Assembly (NCBI GenBank): GCA_010093815.1 | Contig: ML996587.1 | Source: Pseudovirgaria hyperparasitica | Taxonomy: Eukaryota | Length of the DNA stretch: 64,000 bases | Direction: 5' to 3' (one strand) | In this document: piece after piece, positions 12,797-44,184 of the stretch | How positions within the stretch are numbered: the first letter of the stretch is position 1 | Layout: every line of letters starts with the position of its first letter | Position numbers and translations under genes: made by a program | Notes under the pieces: model-generated | Database searches by the model: none | The model's input: only the letters and a program-made list of their open reading frames with translations | What the model was told of the DNA's origin: nothing

Positions 12797-14132
12797 ATAG
12801 ATAATAGAGACGGAGGGGACCCCGCCCGGGGAGACCCTTCTAGATAAGATTAACTACTAGATAGCACGTATAGAGGGGGAAGTCGAGAAGGGAGAAACGG
12901 CCCTCCTTAGTATCTTCCGGAACCTTATCTAGAATATTAGAGAGCTTACCATAGGAGTAAAACAGGCGCCGGAACTAGACCCGGAATCTAGACTAGATTA
13001 TATAGAGGCTAGCCTATAGAGGATCTAGGAGGGCCTTATCTAGGGAAAACGCCCTAGTACGTGGGCATAGATCGCCGCACCTATAAGCGGAACAGCCATA
13101 TTAGCTAAAATACTAAGGGCACCTACGGACGGGGCATATAGTATACGAGTTACTATCTAGAATAAAGAAGTACTCATATAAGTCTAGTAAGCGTCCCTAA
13201 AGGACATTATAAATAAGATTAACGAATAGAAAGGGATATAGTTAAATATAGTGGCCGCCAAACTCACCCTAGAAGGTATAGTACTAACTACTACTACTAA
13301 CACGGCCTAGTAGACTATCTTGCGCGACCCGAACGCGATTAACGACATCTTCCCTAGCGTGTCCGTCCACGTAACCACGTACCCGATATAGATATATACT
13401 ATCTCTATCTAAGGACACGTTATTAGAGAAGACGATATCGAGCGAATAGAGTAATCTAATAAACCGAAGTACCCTAGGATTAAGATCGCGAAGGCGTAGT
13501 AGAAGAACGTCTAGGGGATTAAGATAAAATTAAAAAAGTACTCTACTATAATAGTAGAGCTTAGGGACCCCGCTCTCGCCTATAGAATAACGTAGGAGGG
13601 CTTCCTAGCCGAAGGAGAGCTACTTACGGCGGAACCATAGAATAGGGCATAGGTAATGACGCAATGCTTCAACTATTAAGAATATAGACATACTAGGCAG
13701 AGGTGCTCTTAGAAGACCGCCTATAGGTAGTATAAATAGGGCTATAATACTAAGGAATGCCCTTATAAGACGCAGAGCGACGAGACGCGAGATAGGGACA
13801 TCGCTAAGTACTCTAACTACGACGGGAAACATCTATCCTAGTCGGTAACGTACACGAAACGTAAGTAGGTCGTAGAATATATTAACGCGATAAAGACAAG
13901 AGGAGTAAGATAGATATACTAAGCCATAAGGCCCTCGCTACCCTCGCCGCTATCCCTAACTTTACTTATAAATCTAGTAACTACCCCCCGAAGAGGAGAG
14001 GATAACACGTAATAGTATACTATATAGAGAAAGATAGGCCGACCCCGGGGTATACTCAAAGCTGCTACCGCGCGAGAATAATCACGCCTTAGCGCTACTA
14101 ATATATAGACTTAAACTTTCTCTAGCACCTAA
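12797..14132 (+). pseudogene. LINE ORF1 (gag-like, 3 zinc knuckles), RIP-disrupted
   Basis: De-RIPed QCFNCQEYGH....C, CGWCKQGH....C and CLNCDGKH.SW...C at ~13660-13855. The many TAA/TAG stops are consistent with CAA/CAG/TGG mutation. Start is approximate. Confidence 0.85.
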
Positions 14133-17100
14133 TGAGGGCATAACATATACTTATTATTATATAGGCGAACGTATAATATAAACGAGAAAACCAAGCGACG
14201 CTCCTAGAAGAGATAGAAGCCATAATAATAGCTATCTAGGAACCATATAAACACTACTAAACCAATAAGCTAATAACACACCTAGAATACTATACCATCC
14301 ACCCTACGGGCCCGGATAGGAGAGTTATGTTTTATATATATAAGTCGATCCCGCTCTTAGAATGGTCTTATACCGAACGTGATAACCTCCGGATAATACT
14401 ATATCTCTAGATAAGTATAGGGCCTCTCTATATCTATAATATCTATAATTAATAGCGATCGCTTACGCTAGATAATATACTCGAGGGCACCACGACGCCG
14501 GGATAACACATCCTCCTAGGCGACTTTAATCTCTACTATAGATGGTAGGGAGGCCTAGCCGTCGCGAGAGAAGAACTTAGAGTAAGGGAACTATACACAC
14601 GGTACCACGACTTCCTATACCTCCTTATACCCGTAGGGTAGATCACCTAGAGGAAACATAAATAGGACGAGAACGGGTCTACGCTCGACCTTACCCTCGC
14701 CACCGAGTACATTAGCCATAGAGTATAGTACTACCGCCCAAGCCGGATATAGACGGACTCCGACCACGAATATATAGAAACCGTAATAGACGTCTCTACT
14801 CTTAATAAATAATATAGAAAATAGCTATAGAAGGATACTAATTAGGATAAATACCTAGAGGACCTAGAATTAGTAATTCTAGACCCCTCTATAGTCGACG
14901 TATCCAACGGCCTAGCCATAGATAAGGCCGTGTAAGTCCTCCTTTAAGTATACTAAGCCATGAGAGATAAACACGTACTATACTAAATATATAGATCCCT
15001 AGAAGCGAGGGGTATACCTTAAATACGAGAGTATAGAAGAGACGCCCGTAGACTATATATATATATATACTATATCTAGACGACCGAGGCCTAGGAAGAG
15101 TAGAAGGAAGTAGTATAATATCGTAATAGGGCCCTCCGTAATAAATAATAAAAATAATAGCGTATGATTACTAATAAACACACACGGTAAGCCGTAGGGC
15201 TATAGTGTATAGTAAAGTAGGCTAAGGGTATAGACGCGCCGACACCGCCGCTACTAATACCTCCCCTAATATACTAAGAGAGAATATACTCTATAAGCCC
15301 GGAGAAGACGGAGATCTTATATAAAGTTATGTTCCCCCTCCCGGAGCTAGTAGACCTATTAGATATTAATAATACTAAATATCTAGATATAATCGATATC
15401 CCCTAAGAGGTTACCGAGGAGAATATACTCGACGCTATTAAAGTACTCCCGAATAATAAGGCACCCGGACTAGATAGGATACTAAATAGATGCCTTAAAC
15501 GCACTATACTAGCTACCCTACCGCTTATTAGTTATATATTTTAAGTATATATTAAGAACGGATACCACCCCTAAAGCTTCCGGGCCGCCTATACTATTAT
15601 ACTTCTAAAACTAGGGAAGAACCCTAGCTCCCCAAAAGGATAGAGGCTAATCGCCCTCCTCTTCTATCTTAGGAAGATACTAGAGGCTACGATTACAAAG
15701 AAGATAAGCGCCGTAGTATAGGAATATAACCTCCTCCTAGTAAACTAGAAGGCGAAGACTAGAAGCTCTCTAATTACCGCTATCTAATATATCCTCGAAG
15801 TCGTCTAGACCGTATAGAAGTAGGGACGTATAGTAACGCTACTCTCCCTTAACATGGCCGGCGCATTTAATAAAGTAAACCACACGAGACTTATCTATAA
15901 CTTACGGAAGAGGCGTATACCCGTGTAGATTACGCGGTTTATATAGTCCTTCCTCGCTAAAAGAGTTACCTAGATATACATCTCTAGATATCGAAGTAAG
16001 TACGAGAAGACGGCTTACGGCATCCTATAAGGAAGTACTATCTCTCTAATCCTCTTCCTCTTCTTTACTATAGACCTTCTCTAGAGAATATAATATATAG
16101 AGGTAGTAGGATACGTAGACGATACATACCTTCTAGCCATTAATAATAATACTAGCCAAATATATAGACGACTCGAATAAGACCATAGAAGATATATCTA
16201 ATAGGCAAAGCGCTACGGAGCAAAGTTCGCCCCTAAAAAGTACTAACTTATATACTTTATTAACCGCCGTAGGAAATGGGCTACTAGGGAAGGTAAGCGA
16301 CGCCCTAGAATAGACGCCTTCGACGAACCGCCGACATAAAGTATACGCGTACTTAGCGTTATAATCGATAATAAGCTTAAATAGGGACCATAGGTAGTAT
16401 ATACCGTTTCTAGGGCCCTCTAGATAGAAGCTACTATATAACGGATTATAGCCTCCACGTAGAGAACCGCCCGGGATAAGGTACGCTAGCTATATATATC
16501 TATAGTACGACCCGCCTTCACGTACGGACACGAGTGCTAGTATACGGCCCTTATATAGACTAGGCGAATAAAGCTCGAATCTATATAGAACCGTATACTC
16601 CGTCTTATATTAGGCGTATATAAAGCTACTAATATAGTACTACTACGACGCGAGATAGACGTTATAAGTATATATAACTTCTACTAGATATAGAGGGTAG
16701 TATACTTTACTAAATAATAAGCATAGGAACGTATAGAAAATATAGAATATACCTTCGCCGCGCTACGCGTGCGAGTTAGCGTATACTACTAAGTACTCTT
16801 ATATATAGGCCGGACTCGACTATGGTATAAGTGCCCGATAGAAATAGACTTAAACTAAGTAGTATAAGAGATTAAGAATAACCTAGATACCCTTCTAGAC
16901 TAATAGAGTCTTTAAGAGCTCGGATAAAGTATACGGTTATAGATCTAAGATAAGTAGAAAGAGACACTCCGGGCCTAGTGGGCCTCCTAGTAGAATAGAT
17001 ACCTAGAGTAGATCCGAGGACCATAGAAGGAGCTAAGTAAATAGATATATAAAGGGCTTATAAAGGCCTAGATATCTATACTTCTCTAAGCCCGAACGGG

Positions 17101-17455
17101 CGCTATAGAACTTCTATACTACCTCTATAAGAGAGGTATCCCTAACGTGTCTCTATAGTATAAGGCGTGCGGCCGGAGAGGTATAATACGCTACTATCTT
17201 ATAATATACCCCGATCTTCACACGTAAAGGCAGAAGCTTATCCACACGATAAGAACCTCTAATATTATATGATAGCTTAATAAGTACCCTAAGGATATCT
17301 CCTAATAGATACTTATATATCTACTACTCCTCTAGTACTAGTAGACCTAGAAATATATACTAGAAGAGACCCGGTATACGCTAGTAGTAACCTAATATAT
17401 ACTGGAAGAACCCCGGGAGAACCCTAATTATTAGTTAAGGGTAGCCCTTAACTAA
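14132..17455 (+). pseudogene. LINE ORF2 (AP endonuclease + reverse transcriptase), RIP-disrupted
   Basis: ATG at 14132. APE motifs QANV, AIQEP, LLGDFNLHH, STLDLT, DSDH. RT motifs KAPGPDG, WRPIALL, AFDKV, GIPQGS.ISPILF, GY(A/V)DD (~16109-16123). C-terminal CxxC..H...C at ~17160-17210. End is approximate. Confidence 0.9.
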
Positions 17456-19961
17456 TAACCTCCGTACCTATACGTACTACCTAAGGGTAAAATAATAGTA
17501 ATATAGGCTATAGGCTAATAGGCGTACTCTATAGCTATATACTTAAGACGAAATAGAGGTTTAACGAGATATAGTTATAGATATAAGGAAGTTTTTCCCT
17601 ATAGGGTTTCTTCTTATATAGTGGCTTAGACTAGAGGAGGCATAGGCCTATAGAGTACTACTCTATCTAGTTATATAATATTATTATTATTATTATTATA
17701 CTTTAGTTATCTAGATATAATATATATATATATATATATATAGTCTCTAGGCTTCTTATCTATATTCTTATATTTAAGGTATACCCTTTATATCTAGAGA
17801 CTTATATATTTAATATAGTATATATTTATCTCTAGTATTCTAGTAGACTTAAAGAAGAACTTATATAGCTCTATCTATAGCTAGACTATTAGATATATTA
17901 ACTATAGAGAGATCTAGAATTACTAATTCTAGATTCTCTATATACTTTTTCTAGTTAGTATTCTTTTAGAGCTATCTCCCTTATTATTTATTAGATATAG
18001 ATATATCTTCTATAGTTTCTATATACTTATAGTTAGAGTCTATCTATATCTTACTTAGATAGTAGTATTATACTCTATAGCTTATATATTTAGTAGTAAG
18101 GGTAAGGTTAAGTATAGATCCTTTCTTATTCTATTTATATTTCTTCTATATAACTTTTCTAATAGATATAAGAAGGTATAGAAGGTCTTAGTATTATATA
18201 TATTATTCTTTTACTCTAAGTTCTTTTCTTATAACTATTAGATCTCTCTACTATCTATAGTAAAGATTAAAGTTATCTAGTAGAATATATTATTCTAATA
18301 TTATAATACTTTCTAGTATAGTATCTAGTATAAGTAATTCTTTCTAGTTATAAATATTATAGATATAGAGAGACTCTAAATTTATCTAGAGATATAATAT
18401 TATTTAGAGATTATCTTATTTTATATAGAACTACTCTAAGAGTAGAATTAATTTATATATATAGAATAGAACTCTTCTATCTAGGCCTAGAAGATAGATA
18501 GTATAGTACTCTAGATATATTATTAGTTTATTAGTTTAGTTATATTTATATAGTTTCTAGATAGCTATTATTATAGTATCTATCTCTTCTAAGAGTATTA
18601 TCTAGTTTTCTTATTTATATTATATATTTATCTATATAATAATAAGTATATCTTAGCTTCTTATTAGATACTAGAAAATACTTAGATCTATATACTAGTA
18701 GTATTAAGGTATAATTATCTCTATATAGAAGCTATTTTAAGGATATCCCTAGATTAGTCTATCTTTCTCTACTTACTACTCTAAAGAGTTTTTAAGTATA
18801 TATATATAATATCTCTATATATTAGTACTATTATATATTATATACTAGGTATATATATATTAGAAGTTATTATACCTAGTATACTCTATTAATTAATATA
18901 TATAGATTACTATATTACTCTAAATTAACTAGTTTTAGTCTCTTAGAGTATAGAAAGTTTTTCTATCTAATTAAAATTATAAGAAAATAAGTCTTTAAGT
19001 TAAAAAAAAGTATATAGCTATACTAGAGATAACTATACCCTATATAATAGATATACTCTTTATTAGTATTAAGGTATAGAATATAAGTAAATCGTTAGTT
19101 AATTAGATTATAAGAACTAGATAGTATAGTAGTAAAGATTCTAAACTACTATTTACTTATAACTCTATATCTATATATTATCTCTATATATATAGAAAGA
19201 CTAGAGTTATTATATACTAGTATATATCTATTCTATAACTACTAAGTAGAGTTATAAGTATATAGAATAAATAGTTATAGAGTAAGAGACTAGATAAAAG
19301 ATTATATAGATATATTTTTAATATTTAATAGAAGAATCCTTCTATTACTAAATCTATATTATAAGTATATAATTTATAGTTTTAGATTAATAGATCAAAT
19401 AATAGAAAATATAGATATATTTCTAATATTTAATAGAATAATAACTCTAGAAGTACTAGAAATACTTAATAAGAAGTAGAAGAACTCTAGAATCTATTTA
19501 GAATAATACTAGAAGTACTAGAAAGTCTAAAAGTATTAGAAGTATTATTTAGTCTCTAATATAGATTATATATTATATAGAAATTATAATAGAAGATTAT
19601 ATAAGAGTTTCTATATCTATAGCTTTATCTTATATATTATAGCTTTAATAAGAGAAGATAAAGTTATTAGAGTACTACTCTATTCTATATAATATAGATT
19701 TTTATTATACTTAATATTATCTACTATAAGTAATTAGTTAGAATTTATCTAATAGTATAATTAACTATTTTATTTATATAATTTAACTTAATCTATTATA
19801 TATAATCTCTATACTAATTTCTCTATTCTATATATATATCTATGAATATCTTATCTTATCTACTATATATTACTATAAGTACACGTGTTTTGTCTTATCG
19901 TGTTGCTTGGTATATCACCTACCTTCAGTTTTCTCTTCACCACCTGACCACCTATCTGCCA

Positions 19962-21590
19962 ATGGCATCTCCTCCAAGTTCTCCACCACTGGCTATATTA
20001 CCGCAGCGGCCCTCTAACAAACGTCAACGCTCCGGTGAAGTTACCGACTTCTTCTCTAGTGATCCTGCGCCCGTCTTCTCCTCAGATGACTGGCAAGATG
20101 CGTCGATAGAGCAGTATGAAGCACCGCGGAGGAAGAGAACATTCAGGGGCCCATGGTGGAAAAGCTGCAAGAGATGGGAGCCTGCAACTATGCTGACATC
20201 AGAATCCCATGTGATGTCCCTAGCAAGGAACCTTGACAGCGGTGTATGGATAGACAACGATGATAGCATTGCGTTATCGTCCTCTTTATCGACTCTACTT
20301 AACGGCCCTACTACTACCGATACCTCCTATCAATTGACATTTTGTCCTGATTGGCAGCAAAAATACCCAGCGCCATTACTTTCACAGGCTGAGCTGCAGG
20401 CTCAAGGATTAGTCGAAAGTTGCCTCGAGCAAGGCACGCAATATGTCGACATGAGGTATGTATGGTCTTCAAACCATGGTCATAGGATTCTGATTTCAAG
20501 CAGCAACTTGGGCTTGGAAAAATTAGATGGGAGCATAATCCAGCCGATTAGGGCTTTCAGTACTGTTCCCATGGCATGCGACCGCGACTTCCGACCACAA
20601 CTTAAGATCCTATTGTCAATGAACTCTCTTCAAACTTTGCCGAAAGAAATCTGGGAGCTAAATCATATCGTTCACCTCGGTTTACGTCAAAACAGATTAG
20701 AGACCTTATCCCCCAACATAGCAAAGCTCGTAGATCTACAGTCCCTCGACATCACTGGAAATAAAATCCGCTGGCTTCCATGGGAGCTTCTATCATTGAT
20801 CACCCCGTCGAGGAGCCTGGCGATGTTTCACGTGGAGCACGGAAATCCCCTACTCATGCCATTCGAAGGCTTGCCCGAGTTCCCATCATGTATACGTGAA
20901 CTAGCCATAGGCCACCATCAAGATTTTGTACAAACCAAGCCCGAGACCAATTCCGGCCACGCAACTGAGATGCAGAGGTGGCTTTGCAGAATCGGTGAGA
21001 CAATCCATGCAGGCAAATTATATGGTGAGGGTTTATCTAACAGCCACTGTATACCCTCAAAGCCGTGGCTCGTAGGATGCTCGGAAATGGCCCGCTTTAG
21101 TAGCGATGGTACACTCGCTAACGGTTCACCAATTGCTCCTTCACTCGTACCTCTAGAACAGAGATCATTAAAGGCGTATTTGGTGGACGATCTGCCCCAG
21201 CCACAACGAATATCTTGTAGTCGTGTGGGCTCTCTTTTTGAGCTCTCACTTCGAAGAGTAACAGCGTTAATATCTACAGAGCAACTTCGGAAATATGTAC
21301 CAGATCTCCCAGAAGGGCCCTTCCAGCGTGCTCTTACAGAGGCTGAACACGTTCAAGCTGACGGAGGTCGTACTTGTTCTGTTTGTGGCCAATTGTACAT
21401 CCTTCCTCGAGCAGAATGGATGGAATTTTGGCATGTTCATCGCTCTGGAGCTACGGCTGGCATCAACGGCCATCTTCTCCCATTTCTCCGAAGAGCTTGT
21501 AGTTGGCGCTGCGGATACACCGCCTTCTGTAATATAAGGAGTGCATATGGTAGATACGCCGCTAAGTGTACTATAAATTCATTTCCATAA
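19962..21590 (+). CDS. Leucine-rich repeat protein with C-terminal BC/SOCS-box-like and Cys-rich (CxxC...CSWxC) region, LRRC58-like architecture; exons 19962-20455 and 20504-21590, ~526 aa
   Basis: Unmutated GC-balanced island. LRRs LSMNSLQTLPKEI, LGLRQNRLETLSPNI, LDITGNKIRWLPWEL. Intron GTATGT..CTGAT..CAG at 20456-20503, whose removal restores VDMSNLGL. The upstream ATG at 19842 lies in RIP-like AT-rich DNA, so 19962 is preferred. Confidence 0.85.
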   Translation: MASPPSSPPLAILPQRPSNKRQRSGEVTDFFSSDPAPVFSSDDWQDASIEQYEAPRRKRTFRGPWWKSCKRWEPATMLTSESHVMSLARNLDSGVWIDNDDSIALSSSLSTLLNGPTTTDTSYQLTFCPDWQQKYPAPLLSQAELQAQGLVESCLEQGTQYVDMRYVWSSNHGHRILISSSNLGLEKLDGSIIQPIRAFSTVPMACDRDFRPQLKILLSMNSLQTLPKEIWELNHIVHLGLRQNRLETLSPNIAKLVDLQSLDITGNKIRWLPWELLSLITPSRSLAMFHVEHGNPLLMPFEGLPEFPSCIRELAIGHHQDFVQTKPETNSGHATEMQRWLCRIGETIHAGKLYGEGLSNSHCIPSKPWLVGCSEMARFSSDGTLANGSPIAPSLVPLEQRSLKAYLVDDLPQPQRISCSRVGSLFELSLRRVTALISTEQLRKYVPDLPEGPFQRALTEAEHVQADGGRTCSVCGQLYILPRAEWMEFWHVHRSGATAGINGHLLPFLRRACSWRCGYTAFCNIRSAYGRYAAKCTINSFP

Positions 21591-22938: not shown

Positions 22939-23851
22939 TATAGATCTATAATCTATATTACTATTATTTTATTCTTAGATAATATATATAGAGTATAGAG
23001 ATTATTAGCTAAGGGTTACCCTTAGCTAATAATTAGAGTTCTTCTAGAGTTCTTCTAGTATATACTAGAGTCTATCTAGTATATATCTAGTTTCTTCTAG
23101 TATATATATTAAGATCTACTAGTACTAAGAGAGTAGAAGATATATAAGTATTTACTAGATAATTTTCTTAAAGTACTTATTTAGCTAATATATAATATTA
23201 GAGGTTCTTATTATAGAATAAGTATTTATCTTTATATATAGAGATCTAGATATATTATAAGATAGTATTATATTATATATCTCTAATTATATACTTTATA
23301 CTATAGAGATATATCTAGAATATCTCTCTAGTATAGAAAGTATAAAAGTTCTATAGCTTCTATTTAGGCTTAGAGAAGAATAGATATTTAGACTTTTATA
23401 AGCTCTTTATATATCTATTTACTTAGTTTCTTCTATAGTTCTTAAATCTACTCTAAATATCTATTCTATTAGAATATCTAATAGACTTAAAGAGCTTCTT
23501 TCTACTTATTCTAGATCTATAATTATATAGTCTATATAAGTTTTTAAGGGTTCTACTAGTATAAGAAGGTATCTAGATTATCTTTAATCTCTTATATAAT
23601 CTAACTTAAGTATATCTCTATTAGATACTTATATTATATTTAAATCTAGTCTATATATAGAAGTACTTAATAGTAGATACTAACTTATATATATAGTATA
23701 GTAAAAGTATATTCTATATATTCTATATATTTCTATACTTATTATTTAATAAAGTATATTACCCTCTATATCTAGTAGAAGTTCTATATATTTATTATAT
23801 TTATCTTATATTATAGTAGTACTATATTAGTAGCTTTATATATACTAGATA

Positions 23852-23926
23852 GGCTACGAAGCCTTATAAACCGCGTCCACGTTATCGTAGCTAGGCAATG
23901 CCTCTATAGAGGTAGTAAGAGATTCG
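23852..23926 (+). ncRNA. HDV/CPEB3-like self-cleaving ribozyme (RIP-mutated copy A)
   Basis: P1 GGCTACG/CGTAGCT with G1-U wobble; P2 (C)GAACC/GGTTCG (intact in copy B); P3-L3 GCG-TCCACGT-TAT; J1/4 (G>A)G; P4 CCTC-loop-GAGG; J4/2 GTAAGA, inferred GCAAGA/GCGAGA before RIP. G1 is the first base after the TSD. Confidence 0.8.
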
Positions 23927-25038
23927 GAGCGGCGTTAATAGTAACCTAGTCGTCGCTAGATAGATGGTTAAAGAGTTTTCGCGGAGCGTCTACCTTACTA
24001 AACCACGCTAATATAACCTAGCTAGGGAAGTATATACTTCTATTCTATCCCTAATAAACGCGTTAAGAGAAGTTCACGAGAATAAAGGGATAAGAAAACC
24101 ATCTAACGCGCTACTACTATGTCGAAAGTAGGCCTAAATCTATTTTACTAACTAGGTAGAGGAAGCGGAGATTCTAGTAGCGTGATAGGATACCTTAAGG
24201 CTTAAACGGCTCTAGGAACGTAAGGAACACGTCGAGGGTAACTAAGAAACTACTACTAGAAGAACTTATTAAAGCTAACTCTTCTATAGTATTAAACTAC
24301 GTTTATTAAGCTATCTAGTACGACTACTAGTAGTATAACTCTATTAAGACCTTTCGCTCGATACGAGATACTACTTTACTACTAATAGGTAGAGTAGCTC
24401 CCGCGTACGAGAGATGTTATAGTCTACTATAGAAGGTGGGATACTAGAGTATATAGATAATAGTATATAGATATAGATAGGAGGCAGCTATAGGGACCCT
24501 TTAAGAGTAGTAGAAATAAGTCGGGTTAGTAGGAAGAGAATACCTAAGTCGCCTAGGCGTATATACGTAAGGGATTTAGAGGATACTCTCCTATAAGATA
24601 TAGTTAGCCTATTATAGAGAGATCCTTATAGGTAACACGAAACTAAAAAGTAGTAATACTTAAAGGCGGGGCGTGGTATATAGTAGTAACTACTAGCTCT
24701 AAGGACCTTACCTCTTTAATAGGCTCTAACCCTTAATATATCTAGAAGTAGATAGAATTATATTCTAGCTAGAGAGACTACTATATAGCCTAAGAGAACG
24801 GATATATATATTAATTTATAAAGAGATAGAACGTATCGCCTATAAGGCATATACGCTAGTATTATAAGTTTAAGGAGTAAACCTTATAGTTACCTAGCTA
24901 GGAGAGGCTTCGGTTACCTCTCCTAGTAGAGCCGGAGGTATAAGCCTAGAGGGAATAAGATAAGGCGAAAACAGGAGTAGGGCCTAATGGTATAGGGCAC
25001 GTCGAACCTATAGGAGTTATCTAACTCCGAACTAGAGG
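23852..25038 (+). ncRNA. ~1.19-kb non-coding structured RNA 'head', copy A
   Basis: Colinear with 60558-61762 (minus) with identical termini. Differences include non-RIP substitutions and frame-breaking indels clustered in hairpin loops. No protein motif is recognisable. Confidence 0.7.
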
Positions 25039-28000
25039 CCTAACGGACCAAACTGGTTAATTCGGGGTAAAACAGCGATTTACATACATTAAACAATAGA
25101 GTACACCGAGTATAACAACCTCTAACACACGTGCGTACATGTAGCGTATAATACACGATAATACCGACGTATAGAGATACTATATATATACGCTCGAAGA
25201 CTCTTTAATAATATAAGTATAGACTATATCTAATAAACGCTAATACGCTAACCCCCTTTTATTAGTTAAGGGCTACCCTTAACTAATAACTATAGCGGCC
25301 TTAGGTATCGTAATACCCCGGTATACGCCGGATATACCCCTACTAGTATAGTAGAAACAGCTATATAGCGATATTAATATAGATAGCTAGATATCTATCT
25401 AAAATATAGGAACTAACTAAGGGTGCGAAGCGCTATAGATAACCTAGACTAAGGGGACCCTAAGAGAGAAGACCCTCCTAGATAAAATTAAATACTAGAT
25501 AATATATATAGAGAGGGACGCCGAGGAGGGAAAGAAGACCCTCCTTTATATATTCTGAGACCTTATCCGGAATCTAAGAGAAATTATAGAGGAAGAAAGG
25601 AAGTCGTTACGAGAGGAACCTAGTAGTAGACTTAACTAAATAGAAGCTAGTCTACGGAGAATCTAGAAAGAGCTATTCTAAGGTAAGCGCCCTAACACGT
25701 AGGCTTAGATTATAGTAACACCTAGAGCTACTATACTAAGGACTACTAGGACTATAGATAGAGTATATAGTATATATATCGTAATCTAGGATAAGGACAC
25801 GCTAGCGTAGGTCTAATAGGTATCCCTAAAGGAAATTATAAATAAGATTAATAAATAGAAAGGAATATAGTCGAGTATTATAGCTACTAAAGTTACGCTA
25901 GGTAGGGTAGTACTTACTACTATAACGAATACTACGTAGTAAAACATCTCGCGAGATCTAAACGTGATAGGTAGTATCTTCCCCGGCGCGTCTATTAGGG
26001 TAGCTATATATCTAATTATAGTATATATAGTACCCGTATAGGGATAGGCTATTAGAGTAGAGAATATTACGTGTATAGAATAATCTAACACGCGAAAATA
26101 TCTAGGGATTAAGATTATAAAAGCGTAGTAGAAGAATCTATAGACGATTAAGACGACGGCGAAAAAACACTCTACTATAATTATAGAGCTCTAAGACCCC
26201 GCCCTTATATAATATATTATATAGAAGGGATTCCTAATAGAAGGAGAGCTCCTTATAGCCGAGCTATAGGATAGAGTATAGATAATAATATAGTGCTTTA
26301 ACTATTAAGGGTATAGATATACTATATAAAGGTACTTATAGAAGACTAAGTACGGATAGTACCGTAGGGACTATACTATCTAGAAGTGCCCTCACGAACC
26401 GCAAGGAGATAGACTAAGAAATAGAGATATAGTATAGTATTTAAACTACGACGGGAAATACCCGTTATAGTCATTAATATATATAAAATATAAATAGGTT
26501 ATAGAATATATTCGCACGATAAAAGCGAGAGGCGTAAGATAGTTATAGAATATAATACCTACCACGAGCCCTTCCTTTATAATACCCCTAACCTCCTCTC
26601 TAGAAGGTAGTTAGGTAGGATAGTAGACTATTCTAAAGATAATAGAATAACTAAAAGGCATAGTTAAAGCCGCTACCGCGCGAGGATAGTCGCCCCTCTA
26701 AGGAATAAGTATATAGGTATATATACTCTCTAGTACCTAATAAGGGACTAGAATATACTCCGAATTATATAGATAAATATATAATATAAAAGAGAGAACT
26801 AGGCGACGCTTCTCAAAGAGACTAGGGCTATAATACTTACTATCTAGGAACCCTATAAATACTACTAGACGAGTAAACTAACTATACACCCCGGATACTA
26901 TACTATACACCCTCTAGGACTAGAAAGACGAGTCCTCTTCTATATTTATAGGTTAATACTACTCTTATTATAGTTATATACTAAGCGCGATAACCTTAGA
27001 ATAATACTATACCTATAAATAGATATAGGCCCTCTATATATATATAATATATATAACTAATAACGTGTACTTATACTAGACGAGATGCTCGAGGGTACTA
27101 CGGAACTAGGGTAACATATCCTCCTAGAAGACTTTAACCTCTACTACTAATAGTAGGGAGGCCTAGCCGTAGTTAGAGAAGAACTTAGAGTAAGGGAACT
27201 ACGTACCCGCTACCACGACTTTCTATACCTACTTATACCTATAGAATAAGTTATATAGAAAAAACATAAATAGGACGAAGACGGGTCTACGCTTAACCTT
27301 ACCTTCGCTACGAAGTATATTAGTTACCGGATCTAATACTACCGCCTAGGCTAGGTATAGACGGATTCCGACTATAAATATATAGAAACTATAATAAACG
27401 TGTATACCCTAAATAAATAACGGGGACGATAGATATAGAAGGACACCGACTAGGAAAAGTACCTAAAGGACCTAGAATCGGCGATTCTAGATCCCTCTAT
27501 AGTCGATATATCTAACGACCTAGCCATAGACTAGGCCGTATAGACACTCCTATAAATATACTAGAATATAAGAAATAAATATATACTATACCGAATATAC
27601 CGGCCCCCGGAAGTAAAGGGGATTCCTTAAGTATAGGAAAGTAGATAAGACGTCCGAAGGCTATATAGACGCGTATACTATATAAGAATACCCGAGTCAT
27701 AGAAAGAATAGAAGGAAGTAATATAATAACGTAATAAAGTCCTCTATAATAAAAGGCGTAAATAGTAGCGTATAATTACTAGTTAATAGATATAATATAT
27801 AATAGGGCTATGGTATATAGCGAAATAGGCTAAGGGCGTAGATACTCCGATACCCCTACTACTTATACCTCCCCTAATATATTAGGGGAGAATATACTCC
27901 ACGGGCCTTAAGAAAACTAAGGCCCTATAGAAGGCCATGTTCCCTCTCCTAGAACTAGTAGACCTATTAGATGTTTACGGCGCTAAATACCTATACGTAG

Positions 28001-30286
28001 TAGATATCCCCAAAGAAGTTACGGAGGAGGACATACTTAATATTATTAAGACACTCCTAAATGATAAAGCACCCGGACTAGATGGAATTCTAAATTAATA
28101 CCTAAAAAGTACTATAAAAGCGACCCTACCGCTTATTACTTATATATTCTAAGTATACGTCACGTAGGGGTACCACCCCTAGAGCTTCTAAGTCGCCTAT
28201 ACTATTATACTCCCGAAACTAGAAAAGAGCCCTAACTCTCTAAAGGGATAGAGACTAATCGCTCTTCTCTTCTACCTAGGTAAGATACTAGAGACTATAA
28301 TAGTAAAGAAGATAAGTACCGCGGTATAGGAATATAATCTCCTCCCTCTAAACTAGAAGATAAAGGTAGATAGCTCTCTAATAATAGCTATCTAATATAT
28401 TATTAAAGTCGTCTAGGCCGCATAGAAATAGGGACGGGTAGTATCGCTTCTCTCCCTCGATATGGCCGGAGCGTTTAATAAGGTAAACTATATAAGACTT
28501 ATTCATAACCTCCGGATAAGACGAATACTAGAATAGATTATATACTTTATATAGTTATTCCTTATAGGAAGAATAACTTAGATATATATCTTTAGATACT
28601 AGAGCGAATATAAAGAGACGGTATATAGTATCCTATAAGGGAGCACCATCTCTCTAATTCTATTCCTCTTCTTTACGGTAGACCTTCTTTAAGAAATAAA
28701 GTATATAGAGGTAGTTGGATACGCTAATAATATATACCTTCTAGCTATCGATAATAATACTAACCGAACGTATAGACGACTAGAATAGGACTATAAGAGG
28801 TGTCTCTAGTGGGTAAAACGCTACGGAGCAAAGTTCGCCCTAGAGAAATACTAGCTTATATACTTTATTAATCGTTAAGGGAAATAGATAACTAGGGAAG
28901 GCGAACGACGCCTCTAAATTAACGCATTTAACGAACTACTAGTATAAAGCATGTACACGCTTAGAGTTATACTAGATAGTAAGCTTAAATAGGGACTATA
29001 AGTAGTATACGCCGTCTCTAGGGCTCTCCGGGTAGAAGCCGCTATATAATAGATTATAGTCTCTATATAGGGAACCGCCCGGGATAAGGCACGCTAGCTA
29101 TATATATCTATAGTACGACCCGCCTTTACGTATAGACACGAGTACTAGTATACGGCCCTTATATAGACTAGGTAAATAAAGCTTAAATCTATATAGAACC
29201 GTATACTCCGTCTTATATTAGGTGTATATAAAGCTACTAATACGGTGCTACTACGACACGAGATAGACGTTATAAGTATATATAACTTCTACTAGATATA
29301 GAGGGTAGTATACTTTACTAAATAATAAGTATAGGAATATATAGGAAACGTAGAATATACTTTCGCCGTACTACGTGTATAAATTAGTATATATTACCAC
29401 GCACTTCTATATATAGACTAGAATCGAATACGGTATAGGTACTTAATAGAAGCCGACTCTAGCTAAGTAGTATAAGAAGTCCGAGATAACCCGGACGCTC
29501 TTCTAGACTAGTAGAGCCTTTAAGAACTTATAAAAAATATACGGTTATAGACTTAAGATAAGTAGAAAGAGGTACTCTATACCTACTAGACCTCCTAGTA
29601 GAATAGGTACCTAGAGTAGATTTAAGGGCTATAGAAGAAACTAAGTAAATAGATATATAAAGGGCTAACGAAAGCCTAAGTATCTATACTCATCTAAGCC
29701 CGAACGGGCGCTATAGAACTTCTATACTATATCTATAAGAGAGGCGTTCCTAATACCTCCCTATAGTATAAGGTATACGGCCGGAGAGATATAATATACT
29801 ACTATCTAGCTATATACCCTAACCTCTATATATAACGGTAATAGCTTATCTATATTATAAAGACTTTAGATATTATATAATAGCTTAATAAGTACCCTAA
29901 GGACGTCTCCTAATAGATACTTATATATCTACTACTCCTCTAGTACTAGTAGACCTAGAAATATATACTAGAAGAGACCCGGTATACGCTAGTAGTAACC
30001 CGATATATACCGGAAGAACCCCGGGAGAACCCCGATTATTAGTTAAGGGTAGCCCTTAACTAATAACCTCCGCATCTACACGTACTACCTAAGGGTAAAA
30101 TAATAGTAATATAGGCTATAGGCTAATAGGCGTACCCTATAGCTATATACTTAAGACGAAATAGAGGTTTAATAAGATGTAGTTATAGATATAAGGAAGT
30201 TTTTCTCTATAGGGTTTCTTCTTATATAGTAGCTTAGACTAGAGGAGGCATAGGCCTATAGAGTACTACTCTACCTAGTTATATAA

Positions 30287-30321
<35 letters not shown>
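25039..30321 (+). mobile_element. Near-full-length Tad1-like LINE (copy L2, related subfamily; lacks ~17 nt of the family 5' end)
   Basis: Colinear with 12398-17696; zinc knuckles ~26290-26480, GDFN ~27127, SDH ~27365, KAPG ~28067, GYADD ~28717; (ATT)n tail. Confidence 0.95.
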
Positions 30322-30330
<9 letters not shown>

Positions 30331-31059
30331 CTAGATATAAGATAGAGTATATGGTTCTATATAGATTTAAGCTTTATTGGCTAGCTTATATAAGAGCTAT
30401 ATACTAGTACTTATATCTATATATAAAGGCGAGTTATACTATAGAGATATATAGCTAGTATATCTTATTCTAGATAGTTCTTTATATAGAGACTATAATC
30501 TAATATATAGTAGCTTCTATCTTAAGGGCTCTAGATATAATATATATAATCTATAGTCTCTATTTAAGTTTATTATTAATTATTATACTAAGTATATATA
30601 TACTCTATATTAGTAGTTTAGAGAAGATATCTAATCTAGAGTATTATTTATTTTCTCTAGTAGTCTATCTTCTATAATAGTTAATAAAGTATATAAGTTA
30701 GTATTTTTTAGAGATAAACTTTACTCTATAGTATTTTATCTACTAGATATATATCTTATAGTTATATTTAAGATATTTATATATTAGACTAGTATAGAAG
30801 GCTATATCTATAGCTCTATATATAAATATCTCTAGCTTAATTATATAGTATATTTATATACTTAAAAAGAATATTTCTCTACTTATTTTAATATATATAT
30901 ATACTCTCTATTACTAATATTTAACTATATTAGCTTTTCTTTACGTTTATAGGCTTCCATAGACATTAATTAATAGACTTAGTTATTAAAGAATCGATTA
31001 TAAGTATTATATAGACCCGTTCTATTATATAAGAGAACTAATAAGTAGTTATAAGGTTA

Positions 31060-31817: not shown

Positions 31818-32346
31818 TATAATAAATTAGTAGCTACGACTATAAAAGAATATATAGACTCTAGTATAAGTAATATAAGGGATAGTATAATATATAGAAG
31901 AGGTACTTATAATACTATAGATAGCCTTAGATAATAATCTAAGACTAAGATAGATATCTATAGAGAGAGCTAATTATAGATACTTAGAATAGATATTCTA
32001 AGTAGTCTACTAAGTAATTAGAAATAGAATACTAATATTCTAAGTAATATACTAGATACTTAGAATAAGTATTCTAATTAAAGAATCTTAGTAGAACTAT
32101 ATAGACCCTTTAAACCTAACCTCTAGAGATAGTTCTATAGTAATTAATTTAAACTTATACTAATATAATTACTACTTTACTTACCTACTAGCTAATTACT
32201 ATTTATACTCTATTAATACTTACTATAAATCTACTTATACTCTTCTAAGCCTTCTAAGTATCTTTATCTTTAGAAAAACTAGAATACTTTATATAATAGA
32301 CTACTTTAGAGATAAGCTATATCCTTACTAGAGAAGGTTTATTATA
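31818..32346 (+). repeat. 5' LTR of G2 (529 bp)
   Basis: Direct repeat of 38320-38826 and 55303-55831; termini TA..TA consistent with RIPed TG..CA. Confidence 0.9.
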
Positions 32347-35300
32347 GTTTAATTACTACCTTAGACTCTAAAGTAAGTATTTATACTATCTATTTAAATA
32401 TAAAAAATAGTAAATAATAGATAGTTCTTATCTTTATAAACTACTCTATAAGTTCTAACTATAGAATAAGTTAGATATCTTATTATAGAATTAGAGAAGT
32501 AAGTTATAGAGCTCTAGAGAGAAAATATTAAACTTAGAAAAGCTAAAGAGGGCTTTAAAAGAAAAATCCTAGAATCTTTTAAAGATAAGTAAAGCGAACT
32601 CTAAGGATTTCTAATATAGATTAGAATATATCTCTAGATCTACTAAGTCTAGAACCTAGAAGAATAAGTTATATTTACTACTAGATTACTAAAGAAAGAT
32701 ATACTTATTTAGTTTAAACTCTACTTAAGAGACTTTATAGAAAATAATCTATAGAATTAATAGAATAATACTACTAAGATCTTTAAATATTTTAAAGAAT
32801 TTAAGAAATATATTAAGATAATCTTTAGAGATATAGATAAATAAAGAATAGCTAAGAGATAGATCTAGTAAATAGTCTAAATAAAATCTATATCTAACTA
32901 CGCCTCTAAATTCTAATAAATCTTAAGTTAGTTAGACTAGAATAATAAACCTCTAATTCTCTAGTTCTATATAGAACTCTATAATAATATTAAGGATAAA
33001 ATCTCTAGAGAGAGAGACTATTCTACTAATCTCTAAGAATATATTAAGCTTATAGTCTAGATTAATAACTAATTATATAAGAGACGCTATAAGAAAAGAG
33101 AGAAAAAGATCTTTTAATCTATACTTAAATAAGATACTAGAAAGGGCTATATTAATAAGGCTCTAAACTATTTATATAAGAGATTCTATAATAGACCTAT
33201 ACTAATAGAACTTAGTATCTTATAGATAAAATATCTATCTAATAAAGAAAAGAAGTAACTAAAGAAGAAAGATAAGTATCTCTACTATAAGGAAAAGAGA
33301 TACTATATCTATAAATACCCGAAAAATAAAAATATAAAAAATTAGATTAAGAATCTAGTACTAAGATAAGAAAACTTTACTATAGAAAAAGAAGAAGTAC
33401 CTTATATAGCTATATTATAGACTAGTTATACTAATAACCTCTACTTTATATATAAGTTAGAAAAGAATAGTATAGATTAGTATCTAAAGAAAAGAAATAT
33501 TTTAATAGCTAGTAAATAACTTCTATTACTCTATAAAAAAACGGAACTATAGAAATACTTAGATATAATAAGAAGATCTAAACTAACTAAAGAAATAGTA
33601 TCTAAAGAAGTAACTATAGAAGGAAGTACTATAGAGGAAGATAGTAAGAAAGAAACCCTTACTATAGAAGAACTATATAATAAGTTAATAATAGACTAAG
33701 ATTCTAGTACTTACTATACTATCTATTATTATAGAAAATATATAAGTAAGAATAATAGAGACCTACTTTTAGAAGATATAGAGATTTAACTAGAAGATAA
33801 CTAACTTATCTTACTCTACTATAAGAGATATAATAAGACCTTCTAGATTATCTATCTCTATAATAATTATCTTTAATATCTCTATAAAAAGCGAATCTAG
33901 AAATAGTTTCTATAATAGTACTAGAATTAAGTAATTCTAAAAGCCTTTAAAGATAAAGATATATAATAGTATAAAATAATAACTAAGAAAACTAATGGAA
34001 AACTACTTTATATTAAAGTAGATAAAAAATAAGATTTATCTAGAGAACTAATATATCTAATACCCGGATATTATATCTAGATCTATCTAATATCTAAGAC
34101 TATTATATAATATAACCTTTAAATAGACTTAGGCGAAATTAAGAAATAAGTTTAATCTATAATCTAACTTATATAGAAAATAGAATAGAAACTTAGTAAG
34201 CTATAAAAAAACTAGAAAGGCTAGATATACTAAGAGAAATAGCTAAGCTAAAAAGAAAATCTCTTATATCTATTAGTAGCTTAGATAACGAAATATAGAT
34301 ATCTCTTAAAATTTAGCTCTATTAAAAATACTCTATTAAAGTATTAATTAATAGTAGAGTATAGTCTAACTTTATCTCTCTAACTATAGTAGATAAACTA
34401 AAAATACTCTATAATAGTAAAGAAGAACTATATAAGCTATCTATAATTAAAGGACTTAATATAGAATATATTAATAGAATAGTATACTTAGAAATAGAAC
34501 CTTTAGATTTAGTCTTAATAATAGAATACTAATAACTATAATTAGATATAGTAGAGCTAGAATAATATAACTTAATTCTAGAAATACTATAGCTTAAAGA
34601 AGTTAACTCTATAATTAACTAGAAAACTAAGGAAATTATACCCTAGGAAACGTTAAGACCCTTAGAAACTATTAAAGAAGAATTAGAGATTAATAAATCT
34701 ATAAAGGCGCTAATAACTAGAAAGTCTATCTACTATATTTAGAAGCTTAATAATAAGTAAGATAATATTAAGAGTAGACCCTTATATAAGAAATATATAG
34801 TATAATAAAGTACGTCTATAGATAAATAGATTTAAAAAATAAATAACATACTTATACTAAAGGACTATTACTAATATTATATTATCTTTAAAGAAGAACT
34901 TAAGATAAGACTACTAAAGTATAGTCTATATAACTATATAATAATACTCTAACTAGGAATATTATCTATATTTAAAAGTATATATTAACTTACTAAAAAA
35001 TAACTAGAAATAATACGATAATATATTAAGAAAATAGAAGTAAAAGAATATATCTAACTATCTAAATTACCTATAGAATATCTAATACTCTTTATACTAA
35101 AGAAAGATAGAAGTAAATAACTCTATATAGACTATTAATATCTAAATAATATTACTATTAAAAACTAATACCCTTTACCCTAAATTAATAAGTTATAGAA
35201 CTAACTTATAGAAGCTTAGTACTTTACTATAATAGATTTATAAGAAGTCTATAACCTTATATATATAGTAGAAGAAGATAAATAGAAAATAGCCTTTTAG

Positions 35301-38300
35301 ACTTATTATAGCTACTATAAATATCTAGTAATACTATTTAGACTAACTAATATACTAGCTATATTTTAGATACTAATTAATAATATATTAAGAAAATACC
35401 TTAACTACTTTATAATAGTCTACCTAGATAATATATTAATTTATTTAAAGAATCTATTAGAGTATAGAGAATATATATATAAGATACTTTAGAAACTATA
35501 AATAGTAAATCTACTAATAAAATTAAAGAAGAGTATCTTCTATATATAGAAAGTTATATTTCTAGAATTTAAGATTATACCTAGAGAAATATAAATAGAC
35601 CTAAAGAAAATTAAGACTATTAAAAAATAGAAATAACCTAAGATAGTTAAGAAAATCTAAGGATTTACTAGATTTACAAACTTTTAAAGAAAATTTATAT
35701 ATAACTATTCTATAAAAATAGCCCTACTATATAAGCTTATAAAGAAGAATATAATATTTAAATAGAAACTAAGATAGAAATAAGTATTTTAGTAGTTAAA
35801 AGAATCTATTATAACTAAACTAGTATTAAAGATATATTAAATAGAGAAACTTAGAGATAGATATATTAGAATTTACTATTAAAGGGTAGTTAACCTAGAT
35901 AGATAAATAAGAGAAAAGATCTTCTATAGTATTTTACTTCTAAAAATTCTAAGGATTAGAAATAAACTAGCTAATCTATAAAAAAGAACTCTATACTATT
36001 ATTAAATACCTTAAGGAATAGAGAAGCTATCTTTATAGATTAGACTATATAATAAAAATATATACTAACTATAAGAATCTTATAACCTTTACTATAATAA
36101 AGGAACTATAAAAGAAGTAAATTAGTTAATATAAGCTTCTTATAGAATTTAATATTTAGATTATATACTATAAGAAATCTAAAAGTAGAAGAGCTAACGC
36201 CCTTAGCTAATAAGCGGAATATAAGTAAAAAGAACCTACTATAGAATAGACTATATTAGAAGTTACTAAAGATAGAAACCTTAGACTAATATAATATATT
36301 ATAGTAATATAAAAAGAATTTATACTTAAAGACTCTAAGGGAAGAAGTATAATTCCTAGAGATAAGATCTATTACTTTATTAAAGAATTCTATAAAGGTC
36401 TAATATATAGATACTAAGAAGAAATAAAAACTTATAAATAATTTAAGAGATACTATATAATCTATAAGAAAAGATAAGTTATTAAAGAAGTTATATAGAA
36501 CTATATTCTATATAGTAAAAGCTAATCTAATAGATATAAACTATATAGAGAATTCTAACTAATTCCCCTACTATTATATACTTAGAAAATAATCTCTATA
36601 GATTTTATAATAGATCTACTACTCTTAAGAGAACTAGTTTTATAAGTATAGTATAATATTATACTAGTAGTAGTTAATAAACTTATAAAGTATATCTACT
36701 TTATACTATATTAAAAGAATATAGATATAGAAGAAATAGTCTATATATTTCTATAAGTAGTTATAGTAAACTATAGATTATCTAATAGTATTATATCTAA
36801 TAGAGATAAGCTCTTTATATTAAACTTTTAGAAAAGCCTAGTATAATAGCTTAGAATAAGTTACTAACTATTAATAGTCTATTATCTATAGATAGATAGA
36901 TAAATAGAGATTCTAAATAGAATACTAGAATAATACTTATAATACTATATTAATAAATAATAAAATAATTAGATAGAACTACTACTACTAGCTTAATTCG
37001 TCTATAATAGTACAATAACCTTAATAACTAAAACTTTACTATTCTATATAAACTATAGATTTAACTCTATAGCTAGCTATAATTATAAACTAGAAGAATC
37101 TATACTAAAAGTAAAGATTAAGGTAGAATAACTATATAAGCTATACTTAGAACGATAAACTAAACTTTCCTTTATAAATAAAAGAATAGTAAAATATATA
37201 AATTAGAAAAGAATAAAGAGACTATCTCTAAAGGGGGAAGACCTAGTATTCCTTATATAAAAAAACGTTAAGATATAATAACTAAATAGTAAACTAGACT
37301 TTAAGAAGATTAGACCTTTTAGAATAAAATAAAAAATTTTAGAAGTTAATTATAAACTATCTTTATCTTAGAATATAAGGATATACCTAGTATTTTATAT
37401 CTTATTACTAGAACTAGTACTATATAATATAAAAGTTAAAACTAATATTAAAACTATAGATAAAGAATTTAAAGTTAAAAAGATTCTAGAATCTAGAATT
37501 AGTAATAGAATACTAGAGTATCTAATTAAGTAGAAGGGCTATAGATACGAATTAAATACTTAGAAATCTAGGGAATATTTAATAAACTACTAGTAACTAT
37601 TATAGAAGTTCTATTAAATAAACCTAGATTCGCCTAGTTCTCTATACTAAGCTAAGAATTATTAAAATCTAAGGAAGAATTTAGAACCTCCTCGGCGATA
37701 ACTCTCTATTATTATTTAAGTTACTTCTTCTTCTTCTTAAGGTCTATTACTAATAGATTCTAATAAAGTATATTATTTTAATAATACTCTAATAACTTCT
37801 ACTATTTCTCTAAACGCTCTAGATATATAAAAGTAGTCTAAGCGTTCTACTAAGCTTTTTACTAGATAGTAGCTATATATTCTTTCTCTAGCTTAAGGCG
37901 AGCCTTCTTAGAATAGATCTTCTTATCTAGAAATATTACTAATCTACCCTAATAAAAAGAAAGAAGACTTATAAGATAACTTACTTAAAGCTTTAATTCT
38001 ATACTTACTTACTAAATAACTCTAATAAATATACTCTAAATACTTATTAGACTTTATAAATACTACTCTATAAGTTAAACTATATTTCTTATAAAATAAG
38101 TAAGAGAAAGGTATTTTATTACTCTTATAATTAATTAAGATAGATAAAGTAACTCTCTATTTTACTAGATTAGACTTAGAAGGCTTAACTAATTTTATAA
38201 CTCTAGATATAATAGAAGAAAAGAGAAAGAAGCTCCTTACTAGAGGAAGTTAGAATAACTATCTACTTATAAGTAGTAATAGAAGTACTTTAGAACGAAG

Positions 38301-38319
38301 TACCTTAGAAGAGGTATTA

Positions 38320-38826
38320 TATAATAAATTACTAGCTATAACTATAGAAGAATATATAGACTCTAGTATAAATAGTATAAGAGATAGTATAATACTATAG
38401 ATAGCCTTAGATAATAATCTAAGGCTAAGATAGATATCTATAGAGAGAGCTAATTATAGATACTTAGAATAGGTATTCTAAGTAGTCTACTAAGTAATTA
38501 GAAATAGAATACTAATATTCTAAGTAATATACTAGATACTTAGAATAAGTATTCTAATTAAAGGACCTTAGTAGAACTATATAGACCCTTTAAATCTAAC
38601 CTCTAGAGATAGTTCTATAGTAATTAATTTAAACTTATACTAATATAATTACTACTTTACTCGCCTACTAGCTAGTTACTATTTATACTCTATTAATACT
38701 TACTATAAATCTACTTATACTCTTCTAAGCCTTCTAAGTATCTTTACCTTTAGAAAAGCTAGAATACTCTATATAATAGACTACTTTAGGGATAAGCTAT
38801 ATTCTTACTAGAGAAGGTTTATTATA
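38320..38826 (+). repeat. 3' LTR of G2 (507 bp, ~22-bp internal deletion)
   Basis: Direct repeat of 31818-32346, preceded by a short purine tract (AGAAGAGG). Confidence 0.9.
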
Positions 38827-43641: not shown

Positions 43642-44184
43642 TGCCAGGAGTCTACGACAATAGGCGACCAAACTCAACGCGTTGAGTGTCCAGAGGCGCG
43701 ATTTTGTGGTGATGACAAAATGACCACATCCGTCGGTCGTAGCTTCAGTTAATTAGCTGCCGCGAGGTTTCTCCGCTTGCGAGCGTTGATACGAATACGA
43801 AAATATGCACATATGAAAGGTGAGTGGGACAAGAAGAGTTAGATTTGCATGCTCTGTGTTGCCTAGAAAATTACTACATTTATCGGAACATTGCCCTGTT
43901 TATGGAATAATGTAACGATGGCCATGTTTGGCCATTCCCTAGAATGTGCATTCGCCAGGCCCCACTTTTTTCGGTCATGCGTCTGTTGACATCGGAGCGT
44001 ACCAAATATCACAGCAAAACTACATGGCAACGACCACGGTGTCGATTCGTAGTATTCCTGCCACGCCATGCAGATGTCACGTCAAAATATGCCAAACGCC
44101 ATAGCGCCCCTAACATTAAGAGACATGATACACATAATCCTTCTGGAGCATTGTATTAGCCGGCATTCAAACAGCCTCACTCCT

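Follow-up and report, generated by a model that had tools for sequence, protein, structure and literature searches.

A ~1.2-kb head with fixed ends joined to variably 5′-truncated LINEs in Pseudovirgaria hyperparasitica: a MINE-like family outside Magnaporthe

How does one and the same sequence of about 1.2 kb come to stand at the front of two insertions of a long interspersed nuclear element (LINE), when the LINE parts of these insertions begin about 4.9 kb apart? The question is raised by positions 23,852 to 30,321 of a 64,000-nucleotide stretch of contig ML996587.1 (assembly GCA_010093815.1) of the fungus Pseudovirgaria hyperparasitica; the whole stretch is called the window here, the ~1.2-kb sequence is called the head, and the two head–LINE insertions are called chimeras A and B. 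It is likely, in our judgment, that the head is a full-length copy of an RNA, joined by a template jump of the LINE reverse transcriptase (RT) to a LINE of variable 5′ truncation, which is the mechanism put forward for the MINE elements of Magnaporthe and for mammalian U6/L1 chimeras.

BLASTN with the head of chimera A as the query finds exactly two copies of the head in the window, head A at 23852-25038 on the plus strand (1187 nt) and head B at 61762-60558 on the minus strand (1205 nt), with 82.6% identity over 1218 columns. Both start with GGCTACGAAG, immediately 3′ of a target-site duplication (TSD), and both end in GAACTAGAGG, so that the first bases (GGCTACG) and the last (CTAGAGG) are the same in the two copies, as the sequence-only reading of this DNA had claimed. 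The CC at 25039-25040, directly after head A, may be part of the head or of the LINE. A global alignment of the two heads (1211 columns) has 994 identical positions, 145 transitions, 42 transversions, and 30 gap columns, a pattern that looks as expected for two copies that went through repeat-induced point mutation (RIP) independently. Head and LINE bear the RIP signature: the TpA/ApT index is 2.1-2.2 in the heads and 1.7 in the LINE but 0.8 in the neighboring gene at 19842-21590, and the (CpA+TpG)/(ApC+GpT) index is 0.14-0.15 in head and LINE and 1.3 in that gene.

The head is apparently non-coding. Its longest open frames are 45 amino acids in A, 105 in B (antisense), and 80 in a de-RIP consensus, and a Pfam search of 12 read-through frames (two copies in six frames each) gave no family at the cut-off and two weak rows, with E-values of 0.37 and 0.087. 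Rfam, searched with both head copies at E ≤ 10, returned only chance-level rows for bacterial small RNAs, clustered regularly interspaced short palindromic repeats (CRISPR), and small nucleolar RNAs. ARAGORN found zero tRNA-like genes in the window, and metagenome scans with a 20-nt head stretch and with a RIP-tolerant 28-nt head pattern gave 0 matches each. In the last ~60 nt of head A (24980-25040; the equivalent in B is 60556-60616, minus strand), a closing stem, GGCCU.../...AGGCC, can be drawn around two hairpins. Such a stem may serve in 3′-end processing or as an acceptor structure for the RT; the minimum free energy (MFE) folds of the RIPed head ends have z-scores of -0.08 to -1.05, which are not significant.

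Chimera A reads, on the plus strand, as the 16-bp TSD TTATATATACTAGATA (23836-23851), the head, the LINE from 25039 to 30321 ending in (ATT)n, and the second copy of the TSD (30322-30337). The LINE part proper, which aligns to a headless LINE copy described below, covers 25039-30286 with its RT domain at about 28241-28860, and the (ATT)n microsatellite tail covers 30287-30321. Because A inserted into an older, reversed LINE copy, paralogous empty sites are available for it in the window, at 10760-10940, at 48760-48930, and at the reverse complement of 29150-29320. At three out of three of these old-LINE sites, the left and right flanks of A share an overlap of precisely 16 nt; therefore, the head, LINE, and tail of A were inserted as one piece. 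The LINE copies that received B and the headless insertion described below have diverged too far for a comparison of this kind.

Chimera B, on the minus strand, consists of the 14-bp TSD TATACTAATAGATA (61763-61776), the head, the final 369 nt of the LINE including its (ATT)n tail (60557-60189; 93% identity, with a joint equivalent to 29936 in A), and the downstream direct repeat of the TSD (60175-60188). In both chimeras, the head–LINE boundary is direct and in the same orientation, with neither tail nor filler. That each chimera lies within a TSD of its own, as first proposed from the letters alone, is thus borne out by the direct repeats of A and B and, for A, by the agreement of the three empty sites. 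The accompanying description, of A as a head on a nearly complete LINE and B as a head on the last 369 nt, holds as it stands for B; A comes close to a complete LINE but is short of 39 nt or more at the 5′ end. The head–LINE joint of chimera B (60540-60580, minus strand) contains a perfect palindrome of 8 nt centered on a single base, ACTAGAGG-T-CCTCTAGT.

Is the head then simply the 5′ end of this LINE? A headless copy at 12360-17696 (plus strand, found by BLASTN) has its own 14-bp TSD, TATACTTTAGTTAT, at 12346-12359 and 17697-17710. Its segment 12398-17699 aligns with chimera A from exactly chimera position 1188 onward, and it carries an extra 39 nt at its 5′ end (12360-12398, TACTATT...AAAAAACTTCTTATACC) which are absent from chimera A. 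Within this extra segment lies AAAAAACTTCTTATAC, which recurs upstream of an old LINE copy near 62443. As the old copy, too, has part of these upstream 39 nt, the 5′ sequence of the LINE is different from the head, and the LINE part of A has lost 39 nt or more. The old copy itself, which hosts chimera B, is represented by its 5′ part at 61934-62443 (minus strand, BLASTN), and what lies upstream of it is LINE 5′ sequence and not head. A further LINE copy, C, at 47728-52053 (minus strand), was left out of the tally of 5′ ends because its 5′ end runs into, and is hidden by, a run of N at 52056-52920 (865 nt), which starts 3 nt past the last aligned base of the copy. Three LINE 5′ ends in the window can thus be evaluated; one of them, that of A, carries the head, and the headless copy and the copy near 62443 continue otherwise. 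These results agree with the earlier statements that the copy at 12360-17696 has no head and that the head is not the 5′ untranslated region (UTR) of the LINE; in addition, BLASTN within the window finds no similarity between the head and the LINE copies, whose 5′ end is a different sequence.

The partner of the head is, from its sequence features, a true LINE. Its read-through translation matches RVT_1 (E 2.2e-8), and of 7,999 candidates scored, 31 are relatives at E ≤ 0.001, which contain an apurinic/apyrimidinic endonuclease (APE; PF03372/PF14529) and an RT, and in some RNase H as well. The closest of them have about 31% identity, the two named ones being a Penicillium “putative reverse transcriptase”. 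The microsatellite tail and the 5′ truncation of copies point the same way. The last ~375-390 nt of the LINE (29936-30322 in A, 17328-17702 in the headless copy, and 60171-60557 in B) have 93-94% identity among the three copies, whereas the LINE bodies are merely 72-87% identical between copies and the heads 82.6%. It seems, then, that the 3′ end of the LINE was spared most of the RIP damage. The three young insertions, the headless copy, A, and B, all lie inside older LINE copies (12346-12359, 23836-23851, and 61763-61776), and their TSDs have TATAC(T) at or near the start, adjoining the junction with the (ATT)n tail; this may reflect a target preference or merely the composition of RIPed DNA.

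Further joints between head and LINE are present in contigs of public sequencing runs. Four runs under one species label were considered, X1 and X2 from one sample and X3 and X4 from another sample and another study; they were taken as Logan contigs and aligned to window positions 23600-30500 at a likeness of at least 80%. The share of sampled words found was 0.66 in X1, 0.55 in X2, and next to none in X3 and X4, and the records aligned to the window number 21,301, 8,144, 24, and 11, respectively. X1 and X2 are DNA runs and the library kind of X3 and X4 is unrecorded, so the contigs say nothing on expression. In the X1 and X2 contigs, seven of the 15 joints listed (three more lie beyond these) start at 25038-25043, that is, at the last bases of the head, and land on the LINE at 28454, 28593, 29722, 29735, 29879, 29940, and 30003; the joint to 28593 has a single extra C between head and LINE. 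The short sides of these joints are only 22-48 nt long. In addition, a backward joint puts position 23852 directly after 29 unrelated letters, and a third copy of the head thus has the same 5′ end as A and B. That fusion took place repeatedly, as the sequence-only reading proposed for A and B, is supported by the different LINE joints of these two and by up to seven further joints that share the 3′ end of the head.

In X1, the summed contig depth is 12,367-20,749 across the five head bins, as against 108,086-410,229 across the LINE bins from position 25217 onward; the corresponding X2 ranges are 6,830-8,602 and 44,252-165,855. As summed depth is not copy number, these figures hint only weakly that the head is far less abundant than the 5′ regions of the LINE. 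The contigs of X3 and X4 are of another kind. Where they differ from the window, the change is nearly always A>G (245 and 249) or T>C (487 and 492), with C>T at 4 and G>A at 5, and therefore they represent un-RIPed versions. Among them are a LINE body contig of 4.0-4.4 kb, LINE 5′ contigs that extend 107 and 72 nt upstream of 25042 with sequence not matching the head, and a 962-nt contig in which the 3′ part of an un-RIPed head is joined, 25039 to 30003, to the tail of the LINE. The joint 25039 to 30003 is found in all four runs, and the un-RIPed head copy which this contig represents is possibly active. In one contig of each of the four runs, 283 LINE nucleotides at 29494-29778 are swapped for 11 other letters; the swap lies in the long un-RIPed LINE contigs of X3 and X4, so the un-RIPed LINE is a variant unlike copy A at that place.

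Five criteria for LINE template-switch chimeras are set out in PMC2104539. The first is a 5′ part that is a full-length copy of an RNA with fixed ends, and this is what heads A and B, the start of the third copy, and the seven joints appear to represent. The second is a 3′ part made of a 5′-truncated LINE, as found in A (at least 39 nt missing) and in B (369 nt kept), and the third is that truncation points vary, as they do in the window (25039 and 29936) and at the run-contig positions. Direct joining in the same orientation, the fourth, is seen in A and B, and the short direct repeats that flank the entire chimera, the fifth, are the TSDs of 16 bp in A and 14 bp in B. With all five found here, the comparison with MINE and U6/L1 that had been made from the sequence is apt.

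According to the same paper, MINE consists of WEIRD, which is 1113 nt and always full length, and of parts of the LINE MGL of 230-5461 nt, within TSDs of 10-20 bp. The P. hyperparasitica chimeras are alike in having an apparently non-coding, full-length 5′ part of ~1.1-1.2 kb (1187-1205 nt here), in its direct, same-orientation fusion to a variably 5′-truncated fungal LINE (369 to ~5283 nt here), and in the length of their TSDs. A LINE with a microsatellite-type tail and the lack of a solo 5′ part, here in the window, are also common to both. They differ in that the host is a Dothideomycete and Magnaporthe a Sordariomycete, in that the copies studied here are heavily RIP-mutated, and in that the switch-site motif of MGL, GCC*A/U, as given in that text, is not evident at the RIPed sites. 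The head is likened to WEIRD by length and architecture, not by sequence alignment. RIP-tolerant patterns of two WEIRD primers published in PMC3978060 occur in the window 33 times with 29.9 expected and 14 times with 12.5 expected, that is, no more often than by chance, and none of these matches in the window is at the expected place and orientation. The head–LINE family is probably independent of MINE. The mammalian chimeras of the U6 small nuclear RNA (snRNA) and L1, as presented in PMC2104539, share with A and B the full-length RNA at the 5′ side, the variably 5′-truncated LINE at the 3′ side, the enclosing TSDs, and the explanation by an RT that jumps between templates, onto the 3′ end of another RNA. 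However, U6 is a 107-nt RNA polymerase III snRNA with a cellular gene, and the head is ten times longer and without a known source gene.

From this arrangement, we infer a template jump, a free head RNA, and a manner of making the ends of that RNA. The head would be the DNA copy of a ~1.2-kb RNA with the defined ends GGCUACG... and ...CUAGAGG, perhaps with an additional CC. The RT of a Tad1-like (APE and RT) fungal LINE would begin on the (AUU)n tail of the LINE RNA at a nicked target, in target-primed reverse transcription, and would then copy the LINE RNA over a variable length. Next, it would jump to the 3′ end of the head RNA and copy this second template through to the 5′ terminus. That the RTs of non-long-terminal-repeat retrotransposons jump end to end between templates is well established, as reviewed in PMC2104539. 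The chimeric cDNA would be integrated as a single unit, giving a TSD of 14-16 bp, and RIP would mutate the copies after insertion.

Several points weigh against this account. BLASTN finds no solo head in the window, and the sole un-RIPed head contig among those listed is joined to the LINE, at 30003. An un-RIPed head may have coding capacity, given that the head is represented by only two RIP-mutated copies. As to the joints in the contigs, some of the LINE-side placements could be wrong, given the short sides of 22-48 nt, the likeness threshold of 80%, and the low-complexity DNA. The joints at 29722 and 29735 were each seen in a single run, both runs being from one sample, and the joint at 29940 is 4 nt from the 29936 of chimera B; each of these pairs may be one event counted twice, and therefore, the additional independent joints number about 4 to 7. 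The microhomology at the junctions has a neutral weight: it is 0-3 nt long, with a mean of 1.0 as compared with 0.5 at random sites, 10% of which have at least 2 nt, and, being indistinguishable from chance, it neither favors nor contradicts a jump.

It is tempting to go one step further and to propose that the head exists on its own as an expressed non-coding RNA, with precisely processed ends, and that it has evolved for capture by the LINE RT, in short as a tail-less “retro-hitchhiker”, whose likeness to WEIRD in length, in behavior, and in being without solo copies would be due to deep homology or to convergence. We regard this extended proposal as doubtful.

Among the explanations that dispense with a free head RNA, the one that survives best, though we think it rather unlikely, is that the head is a 5′ UTR or promoter recently gained by one LINE subfamily, of which A would be the type, and that the short forms arose by intramolecular jumps or by internal deletions at its boundary. 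A head–LINE of near-full length does exist in A, the un-RIPed head contig of X3 and X4 is joined to the LINE, and the window is without a solo head, just as there is none for WEIRD in Magnaporthe, with 31 MINEs and zero solo WEIRD in PMC2104539. These points speak for a subfamily 5′ UTR. However, the LINE part of A, instead of gaining upstream sequence, loses at least 39 of its own 5′ nucleotides. Moreover, the base on the head side is constant within 5 nt and the LINE side is spread over ~5 kb, which fits a jump to the 3′ end of an RNA and not deletions. The depth of the head, which is far below that of the LINE 5′ region, argues weakly in the same direction.

It is improbable, to a further degree, that the short form, in which a head precedes the final ~320-370 nt of LINE, acts as a master element in the manner of a short interspersed nuclear element (SINE). 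A promoter within the head would drive its transcription, and the machinery of the LINE would copy it by way of the 3′ tail common to both, the other joints being rare by-products. In fact, the un-RIPed form in X3 and X4 is a head joined 25039 to 30003, the very joint that recurs in four out of four runs, and B, with its 369 nt of LINE, is built similarly. Nevertheless, amplification from the shared tail predicts one joint, and at least those of A, B, and 30003 differ, with up to five more seen; a separate origin would still be needed for each of them.

What, then, sets the 5′ end of the head? The sequence-only reading proposed that it is cut by the head's own self-cleaving ribozyme, similar to that of hepatitis delta virus (HDV), in nucleotides 1 to ~90. 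Because the cleavage site of HDV-like ribozymes is at their own 5′ end, this segment is where a ribozyme responsible for the start of the head would have to lie. It is true that the 5′ end is identical in all three head copies, that nucleotides 1-7 (GGCTACG) can pair with nucleotides 35-41 (CGTAGCT) with G.U as the first pair, and that these are followed by a 6-bp hairpin, the loop of which is UUCG in B. A descriptor made RIP-tolerant by accepting C-A as a former C-G fits A, B, and the de-RIP consensus, and a catalytic C was perhaps lost from both copies by CpA>TpA RIP. On the other side, the same tolerant descriptor also matches 486-518 of 4000 random positions (12-13%) and is thus non-specific. 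The strict descriptor, a nested double pseudoknot with P1 of 7 bp, P3 of 3 bp beside P1, P1.1, P2 of at least 5 bp, and P4 of at least 4 bp, matches at head nucleotide 1 in none of the three sequences, compared with 43-61 of 4000 random window positions. Of 124,186 window positions, 8,962 (7.2%) allow pairing like that of the 7-bp P1; the share is 3.3% if a hairpin must follow and 0.75% with G.U as the first pair. L3 would form a loop of 14 nt, the candidate J4/2 is GTAAG, without a C, in both copies, and the first 94 nt have MFE z-scores of -0.08 and -1.05. In Rfam, the window yields nothing at the gathering threshold, and neither head A nor head B yields a ribozyme at E ≤ 10. An HDV-like ribozyme at the start of the head is thus not supported in its RIP-damaged copies, and we think a ribozyme-made 5′ end improbable, a point on which the sequence-only reading is not borne out. 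The template jump account does not need a 5′ ribozyme. A ribozyme, or some other processing signal that defines the ends of the head, could become visible on un-RIPed sequence.

A LINE-associated RNA headed by a ribozyme, for which the sequence-only reading had no earlier description to name, would not be without precedent, because NARTc of Trypanosoma cruzi shares the HDV-like Pr77 with L1Tc (PMC3185411). The likeness to what was proposed for the head lies in a non-autonomous partner of a LINE with a 5′ end set by an HDV-like ribozyme. However, the first 77 nt of NARTc are also found in its LINE, and Pr77 is active in vitro, as described there, whereas the head shares nothing with the 5′ end of its LINE and no ribozyme is supported in it. 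For an origin of the head as a SINE-like or deleted derivative of the LINE, of the NARTc or RIME type, a 5′ end shared with the autonomous LINE is the mark to be sought, and BLASTN finds no such sharing in the window.

That the joints are splice junctions of a retrotransposed head–LINE transcript, as in spliced copies of L1, would agree with one fixed upstream point (a donor) and many downstream points (several acceptors), but it is excluded for practical purposes, because none of the seven joints from 25038-25043 has GT..AG ends (they are CC..CT, CC..CT, CT..TT, CT..CG, TA..TT, TA..CT, and CG..AT) and RIP cannot make CC from GT. Adjacent independent insertions of head and LINE were rejected as well, since the TSD encloses both parts and there is no tail between them.

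Neither the architecture nor the mechanism favored here, the joining of a full-length RNA copy to a truncated LINE, is new. The novelty lies in the second family, which occurs in a RIP-active ascomycete distant from Magnaporthe and for which there are signs of a copy that escaped RIP. No chimeras of the MINE/WEIRD type outside Magnaporthe were found in the literature searched, in which PMC2104539 and PMC3978060 both concern Magnaporthe, and a literature search on Pseudovirgaria and retrotransposons gave nothing related. The identity of WEIRD and the reason for its frequent capture are left open in PMC2104539. A second system, in a distant ascomycete, would allow two heads to be compared in their ends, structure, and promoter; it would also allow one to test whether a feature of the RNA 3′ end governs capture, and to search for the source gene. 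There is a consequence for annotation too, as in RIP-rich genomes such heads are otherwise called LINE 5′ UTRs or unknown repeats. If the head is indeed a free hitchhiker RNA, MINE would be no oddity of one species but an instance of a class of LINE parasites present in two classes of Ascomycota. The interest would grow if the head were related to WEIRD, or if processed ends were shown on un-RIPed sequence.

The rest of the window is AT-rich for the most part, with a GC content of 0.11-0.26 and islands of 0.35-0.49 (in 2-kb steps). Two intact genes lie in islands of normal GC content between RIPed repeats. The one at 19842-21590 (plus strand) encodes a leucine-rich repeat (LRR) protein, and along the entire query (100%) its product is 97% identical to a Pseudovirgaria hyperparasitica protein annotated as a hypothetical LRR protein; the next-best matches, with 31-34% identity, are from other Dothideomycetes. 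The host is a Dothideomycete, distant from Magnaporthe. The other, at 41974-43677 (minus strand), encodes a ubiquitin C-terminal hydrolase with zf-UBP. An open reading frame at 44185-45357 (minus strand) has no Pfam family, and besides the run of N next to LINE copy C there is one of 910 nt at 40209-41118. Finally, a RIP-mutated retrotransposon with long terminal repeats, similar to Ty3/Gypsy, is located at 31818-38687, with a related copy at 55303-56187. It has direct repeats of at least 300 nt, 31908-32207 and 38388-38687, which are 97% identical and spaced by 6480, with a third copy at 55393-55692, and its read-through frames match RVT_1, RT_RNaseH, and a Tf2-1-like SH3 domain.

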